This document shows positions 1-17,500 of a DNA stretch of 64,000 bases, piece after piece. The position numbers were made by a program, and so were the translations under genes. The stretch comes from Eimeria praecox. Its lineage: Eukaryota. The notes under the pieces were generated by a model that ran no database searches, had not been told where the DNA came from, and saw nothing but the letters and a program-made list of their open reading frames with translations. The stretch is from NCBI GenBank assembly GCA_963920595.1, contig OY986947.1, positions 2,728,001 through 2,792,000 on the forward strand, read 5' to 3'. The first letter of the stretch is position 1. Each line of letters begins with the position of its first letter.

Positions 1-2500
1 GAAGCCTAAACAGAAAGTGTAAATACAAGCTCGTGACTGCGTTTGGAGTGGCGTGCTCCCCAACGAGGCAGTTGTGTGTATGCGTAGCCAGAAAAGCACA
101 CTAAGGTAGCCCAATAGCTGTGCAACAGAAGCGGTCGCATGGCAACAGAGAATAAACGCTGTTCAAGGAACCACGGGGATAAGGCCAATTGCAAACGAAA
201 TCCGTTGACCAAGCTCCACAAGCCAGAAATAGGGAAGATATTGATTGAATTGGAGGGTGAATCAGGGGGCATACATCGGCTGCATCAAAAGTGCAAGGAG
301 TGATTCCTCGCGGGATGCGACTAGTCGCGCGCAACGCACTTGCTGGATACTCCATAGCCCACAGGAGAAACCCAACCATCAGGGACAATCAACAGAAGGC
401 AAATTACCAGTGCCCGTAGTCTATACACTAGGCAGACGTGCATTCAGCTGTAGCCACATCAAGCTATCCGGCAATGATAAGCAGCTTCGAACCCCCCACG
501 CGCAGTACCAGGTCCAAGGTGCGGAGGTTTGCAACAGGTGCAAGGTACGCACTCGCTGTGCGGTACACACTTGCCTAAAGGGTATAAGCCGCTGCAGCAT
601 TAGATTAGAAAGGGCACAAAGACGCATTAAAGGACCTTGGGAAGACACCCAAGCCCGTCAAAAAGCTCAACCTCCTTCCAAGATGCCACTGCTAACGAAG
701 GTACGAAGTTGGGATGGTGGCGCTCGCCATACAAGCAACACAGCGACCAAGCCAATAGATACAACAAACAGCCTATGCCGTGCAGGCACGTGTCAAACAG
801 CAACACTGCCTTTAAAAATTCAACGGCTCCTGCCTGTCATGAATGATCCATGCAGACAAATGTCCAACATCACAAAATAACCAGGGTTCTGCACAAAACA
901 ACTGAAATAGTTCAAGAAGCATTCAAAGGCTGTGATGTAGCGAAGCTAGACTGTCCGGTTGTTTGCCGTGCGCGAAACGTTTTCTGGGCAGTTAGAGGTC
1001 CTACGAAAAGGCCTCGACACTTCTTCACAGATTGGACGGGAGCCAACAGCAGTAAGTCGGCAGCTTTTGCAGCTAAACCGAATGCGCATATACAAACTCG
1101 TAAATGCGTTTGGTGTGGCCCTTTTTCCAAACTCGGCAGCTGCATTTCCGTGCGGTCAGAAGTAGTACATTAGGGCAGCCCAATAGCTGTGCCAGAGAAA
1201 TTGTGTTATAACAACAGAGAACAAGTTCGGTGCGAGTCAAGAACCTAGGTCTACAGAAATGAACCCCTTTGACCGAGATTGGCAAACGGGAGTAAAGACT
1301 TTGCTTATTGAACCTCAAGGCGAATCAGGATGCGGTTAGGGGCTGCATCAAAACTGCAAGGAGTGATTCCTCGCGGGATGCGACTAGTGGCATCCAACGC
1401 ACTTCCTGCGTACGCTACAGCCCACAGGAGTAATCCAACTATCGAAAACGTTCGACAAAAGGTGCATTGGCAGTGATACGCAGCCTATGCGCTAAGACGG
1501 CAGCATTCGGCTCTAGGAACATCACTCTGCCCGGCAATGATAAGCAGCTTTGGACCGACCACTCGCAGCAGAAGGTCCAAGGTCTGGAGGTTTACCCCAG
1601 GTGCAAGGAACCCACTCGCTGCGTGGCTCAGTGGTCGCTAAAGCGTGTACCCCGCTGCATCGTCTGCTTGTAGAATCACAAAGCGGCGCATTAGAGGACC
1701 TTTGGCAGATAGCAAAGCCCGTCCAAACGCCCAAGTCCCCTCCAAGCTGCCATTGCTGACGAAGTTGGGATGCGGGTCTCGTCATGCATGCAACCCAGCG
1801 GCCAAGCCGACACACCACAGAGCCTGCGCCTCACATATGGGATCAAAAACTATAAAGCAGATGCGAAAACGTCAAACCTCTTCCACCCGTGTGCACACAC
1901 CGATGTTCGGATGTCAAGCATGAAACGATACCCAGGTCTCTGCACAACGCAACAAGAAAGGTTCAAGGGACATTCAAAAGGAGTCGTGACGCTCTATACG
2001 TCCCGCGTTTAGGTCCTGCACGAAGCGTTTTCAGTGCATTCCGAGGTCCTGCAAAAAGGACTCACCATTCCTTCACAGATTGCACGGACGCCAAAGGCAG
2101 GAAGTCGGCAACGTTCCGAGCCTATATCAAACGTGCAAATACAAGCTCGTGGGCTGCCGATTTCGACAGCTGCATGTTTGCTTGTCCACAAAAGTCACAT
2201 TAGGGAAGTCCGGTAGGGCTGTGCCACAGGAACTGAACTGTATCATGAGAGCAGACGCCAACGAGCGTTGAAGGAGTCACCCTGTTCAGGCCCATCACAA
2301 TCGAACAGCCTTGCCGCACGCTGACAAAGAAGGGTAACGACAATATGGATTGAACCTCAAGGCGAGTCACGATGCATTTACGGGCTGGTCAAAACTACAA
2401 GCAATCCTTCCTCGGCGGTGCCGCTTGCCGCAGCCAACGCACTTCCTGCGTACTCCACAGCCCACAGGAACACGCCGGTCATCAAAAACAACCGGTAGAA
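1..2500. repeat. Old, diverged tandem repeat of about 1.05 kb (about 2.4 copies, running off the window start)
   Basis: Homologous anchors recur at about 1040-1070 bp spacing: tgcaaggagtgattcctcgcgggatgcgactagt at about 292 and 1355; caacgcactt.ctg at 332, 1395 and 2435; gcccaatagctgtgc at about 109 and 1178; gaacctcaaggcga at about 1310 and 2353. Confidence 0.85.
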
Positions 2501-14500: not shown

Positions 14501-17500
14501 AAGCAACCAATACGTGCGAATAAAGCAATTCTTCAATAACGGTGCTTGCACCCCAACAACTATTCACAGCGTGATCAAGGCGTGCCGATGCAGGCTCATG
14601 GGTAATCCCCAAATTACAAGACTCTGTCTACTGGGTGCTAAAAGACGAGCGTGCAACATACGCGCTGATCACTCCATAGCCCATGGGAATGCTCATATCT
14701 CTGCTGCATGCACTTTTGAACTCCCTAGTCAGGGCACCTTGTCGCCAATAAGTTAGATCTAAAACAATTAGAAAGTCTTGAAGGTAGAAATGTTTCTGTG
14801 AGAAGGCGTTCTATCTTAGTTTCGGCCAATTCATTTTGGCCACTCACTTTAGCGCACACTGGGGGAGCGCGCTATCGATGCTGGCAAACAAAGTAAAACA
14901 GTCGTGGACCCCTAAGAATATCCCCCCTGCTGAGTGAAGCAGACAGAATTGCAAAAAGACACGGTAAACAGTTACCACTGTGATATGCCGCCACGGAGGC
15001 TAAACGTCCATCAGTTACTACTAGCCTGAAACTAAAAGTCCTGATTCGCTGCATATTGGACAAAAATTAACGCACATCCTGCATGTATTAAAGCATCGCA
15101 CATTGGCTGAGCCAGTACTGCATTCATTTTCTGTGAAGAATGCTACCTTCGAGGCATAGTTTAAACGAACCTGGCTGCCTGTGAAGCTAAAGGTCTCTGG
15201 GGCCTTCACAGGGTGCCTGTGCTGGAGGTTTACACAACGCCGCTTGTTTGGTAAGGCATAGTTCCGTGTAGTGAGTATCTGCAGTGCCTCTTCGCACTTC
15301 TGTCATGCATCAATCAACGCCTAATCAAGCAGGCAAGCGTAGCAAATACAACCCCACGAAAGCAGCCCAAAACATATGAGGACTGCAAATTAGCTGCGCC
15401 ACTATTTTTAATCTTGAGAAACGTATGCAGCGCACCGCCTGAGCATTAATCCCCAGGCAGCCTCAAACAGCCCTGCGCCGGGCACCTTTTCGGCAATGCC
15501 ACACCACGGCTTCTCAAGCAGTTTTCAAAGGTTACACTGGAATTGTACGTTGTAATTTTGCTGGCGTCCAGCAGCACGCATATCACACACTTCCTTCACA
15601 TGCAAAAAAAATTCTGGTTGAGTGCCGCAAGCGCTACTCCCCATATTATACGACTGGAATGTTCAACGAGCAACTGAGCACCAAGGTTAGCACGGGGACA
15701 CTCACGAAGGCCTTTCGTGGACTGCAGCGCTCACGCTACTCCCAGTTTTTTGCAAATTCATCTACAGGAAAAACGGTAGGCTCCGGCCATTGACGATAGC
15801 GCAGATGCTGCGTCACAAAGAGTACAATGGAGAAACAGAAGACGAACGATGAAGGGCTAAATATAGAGTATACCCAATCTGCCTCAAATACGGCATCAGA
15901 AATAACGCCTAGACCCACCAATGGTAGCGTTTATGCGTAGTTAGTAGTCGGTACATAGCCTCGAAACGTTGCGCAAACGCTATGCCATTGGGCCGCTCGG
16001 GATTGTCAAGAAAACGAATAGCTCACTTCCTGCCCACGCCACAGCCTCCGCTGAAGGGCTGCGAGGGATTGCGCTGGCCGGTGAGAGAGCATGCGTGCGA
16101 TGACGCAGGTTTTGTAAGGCCTAAGCCTCTCGAGGATCGATTCCAAAAGATGCGGTAAGAAAACGCGAGGCCAACCGGACTACTGGTGAGGCTCTATCAG
16201 GCTCAACAGCAAGGAACGCTCACCACTCATACACGAAATAAATCAGGACTGCCGGGGCCGAAATGCAGGTGTACTAAGAGACCCAACAACGCACCAGCTG
16301 CGCATGCCACAGAGTCCAGAATGTCTTTGCCAGCGGTGCTAGTACCAGAACACCTGACAGAAGGTACTCGATATTACTTCATGCAATCAATGGATAACCA
16401 ATGCAATGAAGGAAAATTCTTTGCGTCTGCTCTGCTCGGGCGATCGAACAGCGCTTGCTAGCGACACGAGGAACGGCGCAATGCTACACATTCAGGCCCG
16501 TCACTTCAATTTTTGAATCACAGAAACTAGTTCGAGCAGCAACCGATATGCAACGAGCCTCAACAGCCTAAGTTTGGTCTACTAGTTTGAAACCTGGTGC
16601 CCGTACCAGCGCCAAGCATCCAGCAATATCGGCATCTCAGCACTGAAGAAGGAGTGCATAGCTAGCCGCCACGGAAGGTTGCACCGCAAGCCCATATGCA
16701 TATTGAAGTATAGATTAGCTTAGATCCTCTCGGCAGGTCTCAAAGGGCATGCCACGCACTTTCTGTTAACAGAGTACCTAAACTACTGCTCCGCACATTA
16801 TACGATGGACAAGACTCCGAGGGCACGCAGTAGTAGGGCTGCGCACAGCTAGCGCTACTGCCAAGCGTTTGTACATCTATCTAGACGACAAACACAGTAG
16901 GCTTCTGTCATGGAAGACAGCACAGATGCTTCGTCTTCGTCACACAGACTACAGTGGAGAAGCAGAAGACCAAGGGAACAGAAATATCGAGGATACCCCA
17001 ATAGACGGAAAGGCCAAGCATTTATAAGACGGTTAGCCAATGTACTGTGGATAGCCTACAAACTACATTGTTGGGCCCTTCAGGTGATCCAAGAAGAGCC
17101 AATAGCGCACTTCCTGAGCATTCAAAATGCCTGCATGCCTGTGATTAAATCCTAAGCTGTGTAATTGTCCACACTCATTTAGTATTATTGCTGTTATGCT
17201 GGGTGCGAGTAAGGGTCTAAATTGAAGCTTCTAGGCAGTCGCCCCTTGAGCTGCTCCTCACTGTTATTCGCATATTCGATAGCATTTAAAATGCAGACAG
17301 CATTACACGGCAGGCAGCATTTGAAACGCAGAGTGCTTGAATTTGGATGGATGCTAAATTAGCTGGACAGATAAATGCGCTACGCAGGTGCCAAAGCCTA
17401 GTGGAATTTTGCAGCACGTGTGCGTGCTAGCGAACACGCCACTTTTGGAGGATTCGCATTTTACACACATTATGGTGGAGGCATGGGTGGCTTGCAGGGC

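Follow-up and report, generated by a model that had tools for sequence, protein, structure and literature searches.

The minus strand of a 64,000-nucleotide stretch of Eimeria praecox contig OY986947.1 (positions 2,728,001 to 2,792,000; hereafter "the window") carries a long chain of ~130 three-base units, each held between a splice-acceptor-like AG and a splice-donor-like GT, and these triplets are probably spliceosomal single-codon, phase-0 exons of one gene with more than 100 such exons in a row. The motif itself, its strand, its single spacing, the minimum distance between units and the conservation of AG and GT in duplicated copies are all directly observed, while the coding of the triplets is the step that we weigh below. 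The original prediction concerned the first 15 kb of the window, where it had read the triplets as an Arg/Glu-rich tail.

Site motif, splicing signature and layout

We defined a site on the minus strand as an acceptor (CAG, TAG or AAG), three free bases and a donor (GTGCGT or variants). With this motif fixed at 3-nucleotide (nt) spacing, the non-repeated 28.6 kb of the window held 90 occurrences on the minus strand and 8 on the plus; 100 dinucleotide shuffles yielded 12.5±3.2 (maximum 21). All other acceptor-donor spacings from 0 to 30 on the minus strand of the same DNA gave 6–20 occurrences each, such that exon sizes other than 3 nt showed no enrichment in the window, nor did zero-length AG|GT junctions (6 at spacing 0 versus 90 at spacing 3) or GC donors at 3-nt spacing. 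Among unique strong donors, an AG lay exactly 3 nt upstream in 62 of 98 on the minus strand versus 1 of 24 on the plus strand. A weight-matrix scan returned 141, 128 and 105 minus-strand sites at scores 8, 9 and 11, spanning 340–63292; this score was trained on the window itself, and both the donor-only selection and the fixed-pattern counts avoid an acceptor model. Collapsing by flank homology reduced the 141 sites to 90 families.

The surroundings of the triplets look like those of U2-type introns, as found in the one-strand pairing of AG with a consensus GT, the rarity of G before AG and a minimum intron length. GTGCGT, the canonical donor of Micromonas introns according to the available text of PMC3879977, was the commonest donor here (28 of 74 sites), a likeness that by itself would make an origin from something like a green alga plausible without identifying the source. 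In the 62 sites picked on their donor alone, the base preceding AG was C in 36, A in 13, T in 11 and G in 2, against a background in which G precedes 408 of 1809 AGs, and none of the 62 triplets was a stop. Gaps between sites mostly measured 137–822 nt, and those shorter than 130 nt were scarce (2 of 65 versus 18 expected, P = 2e-7), placing the minimum site distance at ~130 nt, which fits introns having a minimum length. Triplets for Glu, Lys and Gln were NAA in 19 cases versus NAG in 3, with CAG absent (background 1411:1442; p = 4e-4), a preference we explain by the second, tandem acceptor that a 3-nt exon ending in AG would offer.

Once the 90 collapsed triplets are joined, frame 0 contains 1 stop in 90 whereas frames 1 and 2 contain 7 and 9 stops in 89, and because stops are this frequent in the other two frames the chain, if coding, codes in phase 0. 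Composition is also regional, with charged residues at 9 of 10 sites (as families) below 15078, 9 of 14 at 15.1–19.7 kb and 13 of 60 at 19.7–43.1 kb (permutation p 0.0008–0.0055). The chain has neither start nor stop within the window and extends past both ends, and its parts, all on the minus strand, are as follows.

340..63292, minus: chain of acceptor-NNN-donor units, ~105–140 predicted single-codon exons (141/128/105 sites at scores 8/9/11)
340..15078, minus: Arg/Glu-rich part, 24 sites in 10 families (9 once 14662 is merged)
6..2517, minus: older 1.06-kb two-site unit, copies 57–73% alike, kin to part of the 3.4-kb unit
2150..13171, minus: unit of ~3.4 kb, three copies almost identical and a further one shorter and variant (spacing 3416, 3420, 3090), five sites per full unit
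11620..11622, minus: copy of the 553/1616/5144 site, dead through loss of its donor GT
13320..15078, minus: five single-copy sites (15076, 14662, 14272, 13868, 13320)
15436..19651, minus: Glu/Lys transition part, charged at 9 of 14 sites, with an old two-site duplication inside
20079..42941, minus: single-copy part, ~60–75 sites; of 60, 23 hydrophobic, 9 Gly/Pro and 13 charged
25498..25500, minus: high-scoring TAA site, 58 and 78 nt from the sense-codon sites 25559 and 25579
43114..53440, minus: 1052-bp unit, ten copies, each with two strong sites (Gln, Glu) and one weak
54268..63355, minus: 1607-bp unit, five copies with two sites each (Lys, Asn); diverged copies flank the array

The window is about 50% GC and eukaryotic-looking, and its minus strand is T- and G-rich. 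Contigs of two sequencing runs from one sample match its first 20 kb in 28/30 and 30/30 bins, so this DNA is not an invention of the assembly; no piece among the run contigs listed spans the repeat arrays. Within positions 1–20000, about a quarter of the depth in these runs (X1 and X2) carries variant letters at places in single-copy DNA (e.g., 15767, 17736), and contigs have loose ends near 266 and 895; together these suggest a mixed or non-haploid sample and additional, diverged 1.06-kb units outside the window. None of the 27 long open frames tested matched Pfam (there were 79 frames of at least 110 amino acids, the other 52 being mostly repeat copies or microsatellite frames), and an Rfam scan of the window gave no match and no tRNA-scale features. 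The longest inter-site gap is occupied by a 1.1-kb TATATC/TATATG microsatellite (27640–28783), another gap contains a (TA)30 run (18114–18173), and a near-perfect 44-base inverted repeat lies between two sites at 36083–36125.

The Arg/Glu-rich stretch

All 24 triplets named in the original prediction (340–15078) were recovered at the coordinates, with the codons and in the order it had given, each on the minus strand between CAG, TAG or AAG and a GT with a donor-like hexamer. They read as 14 Arg, 6 Glu, 2 Ala, 1 Asp and 1 Gln, with Arg spelled CGC, CGT, CGA and AGA, which bears out the description of Arg/Glu-rich text using four Arg codons. As families, Arg takes 6 of 10 here (6 of 9 without a weak Ala site), much as had been estimated, whereas the accompanying figure of 2 of 88 for the remaining sites was an undercount, the families elsewhere giving 5/80, 3/59 and 2/44 at scores 8, 10 and 12. 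The permutation test that had been proposed as a check upholds the clustering after collapse (6/10 versus 5/80, Fisher 1e-4; scan-corrected p 0.015, or 0.038 and 0.018 at stricter scores, with the correction covering all windows and residues), and a charged cluster persists alongside it (a run of 20 residues holds 16 charged ones; p 0.0008–0.0016). The string read just upstream, at 19.6–15.4 kb, needs amending, in that its Phe at 17060 is a weak site, scoring 5.4 and standing only 48 nt away from an adjacent one, and in that it omits a Glu at 18072 whose site scores 11.3.

A caveat had been raised that several of these sites might be ancient duplicates, and it turns out to hold in part. Site 14662 aligns with site 340 over ~100 bases on each side and shares with it 13 matching bases in register, where no other of the 4005 family pairs exceeds 9; judged by these flanks, it belongs with the Glu/Gln family 340/1403/2443 as an ancient duplicate. 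The pairs 16027/17111 and 15591/16760 are old duplicates too. In contrast, no flank homology was found among the CGT sites 14272, 13868 and 12798; were these nonetheless old duplicates, their codons would have diverged only silently while their flanks were lost, and this would point to selection at the protein level.

The 14 Arg sites come down to 5–6 independent ones, and the RARRE text is therefore mostly recent tandem copying. Nothing supports calling the stretch a tail, as there is no stop and the chain leaves the window. Single alpha-helices of the ER/K type and charged low-complexity segments are rich in Arg, Glu and Lys and free of Pro and Gly, and the stretch is compatible with the proposed helix in being Arg/Glu/Lys-rich with 21 of 24 sites charged and no Pro or Gly; it differs from ER/K helices in its imbalance (Arg 14 versus Glu 6 and Asp 1), where a helix stable in isolation would have balanced i/i+4 salt bridges, in owing its length mostly to recent tandem copying and in that neither gene end lies in the window.

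Duplicated sites and competing readings

Across six groups of diverged duplicates with flanks 51–68% alike, 9 of 11 further copies retain AG and GT at 3-nt spacing, which would have a chance probability of 7e-6 at 65% and 9e-4 at 75% per-site identity. Triplet changes in duplicates comprise Glu/Gln, Arg/Lys, Lys/Asn and Lys/Glu plus two silent ones; all non-synonymous changes remain within Glu, Gln, Lys, Arg and Asn, and in one case paralogues differ silently at the first codon position (CGA/AGA). In the single-copy 20–43 kb, sites share no flank homology with one another and there are no self-matches except one hairpin.

Several further places in the repeats resemble sites in part. All ten 1052-bp units contain a perfect donor at the position of 52834–52842 (minus) with no AG 3 bases upstream, the nearest acceptor being 25 nt off, where it would shift the frame, and this is possibly a dead site; at 53442, 54594 and 56231 (minus), inside the arrays, degenerate sequences resembling donors follow closely on an AG and may be decayed sites. 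Short local duplications at 23710–23795 and 39455–39485 have copied a donor with its flank, or a whole unit 19 nt away, and represent a possible small-scale route to new sites.

A number of observations weigh against the triplets being codons of an intact gene. The chain is known here from genomic sequence alone. Two duplicate sites are dead, namely 11620 (donor lost) and 61570 (acceptor lost), the latter being the array's copy of site 63290 with its AG lost in all five 1607-bp copies, and the recent arrays are half as site-dense (one site per 770–800 nt versus 390–460). Triplets in duplicates match at 8, 10 and 8 of 12 positions versus 63% for flanks (unrelated baseline 53%, the pairs not being independent), and of the six changes seen in the 15591/16760 pair and among in-register copies that are still live, four alter the residue. 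The strong site 25498 (score 15.3) reads TAA, though a stop-free chain of equal length exists without it. Stop depletion taken by itself is not significant (1/78 versus 2.5–3.3 expected, P = 0.15). A branch-point YTRAY within 22 nt of the acceptor occurs at 15 of 74 sites versus 9.5% of control AGs, a weak signal, with no excess when the motif was looked for over 70 nt. A residue-order model trained on bacterial proteins gave z of 0.1–0.8 for the middle part and 1.5–1.8 overall, where real fragments score 0.9±1.2. Within the Arg/Glu-rich stretch, removing 14662 and 16027 leaves Arg at 5/9 (scan p 0.08), and treating the three CGT sites as one family abolishes the Arg clustering (p 0.99), a merge that no homology supports. 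The charged run without 14662 and 16027 stands at p 0.003 (0.03 at score 10). The claim that the triplets are codons is retained in the sense that phase-0 codons are the best reading and charged clustering survives collapse, whereas clustering of Arg by itself falls to p 0.08 once duplicates are merged.

The last point on the same side concerns the single-copy part at 20079..42941, which is predicted to be a compact beta-rich domain and which could be assigned to none of four profile families (FecR, FHA, amidohydrolase N-terminus, C2), these families having been guessed by eye from the triplet order and their profiles built from fetched members. FecR (PF04773; 44-member profile) reached 5.4 bits at the loosest threshold, a score that 6 of 3000 shuffles also reach, and 0.8 and -0.6 at stricter ones, while FHA (PF00498; about -1 bit) and C2 (PF00168; at most 0.3 bits) stayed within their shuffles. 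The C2 profile was made from 31 of 33 usable metagenome fragments (80 loci listed) that are C2-like by motif only, 401 bacterial genomes having given no C2 match. The N-terminal strand pair of amidohydrolases, again a family picked by eye, scored 8.8–9.1 bits over 26 profile positions (0–3 of 3000 shuffles) and 3.2 under the strict threshold, and in this comparison a charged region follows the strand pair where the barrel would be expected. At most, the FecR and amidohydrolase scores indicate beta-strand-and-turn patterns in the middle part.

The TAA site may be there by chance, may act as a poison exon or may signal a genetic code in which TAA is reassigned; it is one of three competing sites within 80 bases at 25498–25581. 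It also figures in the alternative that the units are spliced but belong to a gene that is decaying or whose product is untranslated, with the triplets drifting and the Arg/Glu text a by-product of duplicating CGN and GAA sites. We regard this as unlikely: such drift would agree with the strong TAA at 25498, with the two dead copies, with triplets hardly more conserved than their flanks and with 14662 being a duplicate, but nothing other than a reading frame explains the strict 3-nt size, and the synonymous NAA-over-NAG bias, the silent-position differences among Arg codons and the separation of hydrophobic from charged regions in single-copy DNA all run counter to it.

Another reading, which we rate as quite improbable, is a single giant intron in which the units serve as optional cassettes or relay points, as in recursive splicing or the skipping of schistosome micro-exons; a varying subset of them would enter each mRNA, and no single peptide would exist. 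Every unit keeps frame and skipping would be tolerated, the close sites 25498/25559/25579 and 39460/39479 compete and cannot all be used, and site strengths range widely, as one would want of cassettes; on the other hand, zero-length AG|GT relay sites are not enriched above background, the minimum spacing fits splicing from neighbour to neighbour and the regional composition is ordered. A motif with no role in splicing, whether a protein-binding site biased to one strand or what is left of ancient tandem repeats, with three free bases at its centre, is very improbable, for even though several arrays are tandem repeats and the motif is known from DNA alone, the single-copy sites at 20–43 kb lack flank homology, both halves obey spliceosomal rules (G avoided before AG; the published donor consensus), and we found neither a hairpin across the triplet (p 0.71) nor pairing between intron ends or inverted or terminal repeats (p 0.54).

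Proposed mechanism and known systems

If the triplets are single-codon exons, the minus strand would be transcribed as a long RNA from which U2-type splicing would remove each 100–1,900 nt spacer. Because an exon of 3 nt leaves no room for U1 and U2 factors to sit together across it, we propose recognition across the intron, with neighbouring introns taken out in turn and strong intronic donors offsetting the absent exonic pairing. With introns sitting between codons, the loss, skipping or duplication of a unit would change whole residues without a frameshift, and tandem duplication of multi-exon blocks (1.06, 3.4, 1.05 and 1.6 kb) would have grown the low-complexity charged repeats, RARRE included. 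The coding sequence would be spread over more than 64 kb at one amino acid per exon, and the Arg/Glu stretch would form a charged, largely copy-made segment after the Glu/Lys transition and the likely compact domain. On balance, we favor an expressed gene encoding a folded domain plus charged repeats, with more than 100 residues at one codon per exon, more than 99% of a >64-kb transcript spliced out and a protein that would grow, shrink and perhaps vary residue-wise via unit duplication, loss or skipping. As to how such an architecture arose, our guess is that introns were inserted again and again, each a codon downstream of one already present; the single-copy spacers are mutually unrelated, which excludes a recent introner burst and leaves old stepwise intron gain as a guess.

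We compared this chain with known systems as described in the available portions of the cited sources. The nearest kind is the schistosome micro-exon genes (MEGs), which have 10–20 exons of 6–81 nt (also given as 3–81), mostly 15 nt, introns of 0.1–5 kb, exon duplication, difficult annotation, short secreted products with an N-terminal signal peptide and isoforms that vary by exon skipping (PMC10526429, PMC4350168). Very small frame-keeping exons between 0.1–5 kb introns, exon duplication and difficult annotation are common to both, whereas here there are 105–141 sites, all of 3 nt, over more than 64 kb; the probable gene works like a micro-exon gene yet is no MEG. Single 3-nt microexons occur in mouse Ncam and Drosophila troponin T (cited in PMC8042270) and in Amphidinium (PMC12584245), and microexons of 1–15 nt in plants and algae (PMC8831610, PMC11096116). 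Such cases establish that an exon of 3 nt between AG and GT is possible and can contribute a single residue, but in the portions of these sources available they occur singly, or two side by side at most, within otherwise normal genes, and never as a chain that spells a domain.

Recursive-splicing AG|GU ratchet points (PMC13149111) similarly fuse acceptor and donor in a short element repeated along a long transcript, except that they leave zero bases where the sites here hold 3, and zero spacing is unenriched here. Introners of Micromonas and dinoflagellates are dispersed, sequence-similar introns with partial phase bias (PMC3879977; 10.1101/2020.10.14.339549) and offer a route to mass intron gain with such bias, the GTGCGT donor being shared with canonical Micromonas introns, yet single-copy spacers here share neither sequence nor terminal repeats, and saturation of every codon boundary is not described for introners in the available text of those two sources. 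No chain of single-codon (3-nt) exons was found in the full-text literature, with subscription journals and supplements lying outside the search.

Should transcripts confirm the chain, it would be the limiting case of gene fragmentation, with an intron at every codon boundary. The spliceosome would then be able to join 3-nt exons accurately over long runs with no need of exon definition, the gene would offer a natural system for studying the order and fidelity of splicing, and a mechanism of intron gain stepping by one codon would be required. This would also be a class of gene invisible to gene finders, tblastn and short-read aligners, and more such genes may sit unannotated in the "intergenic" DNA of intron-rich eukaryotes.

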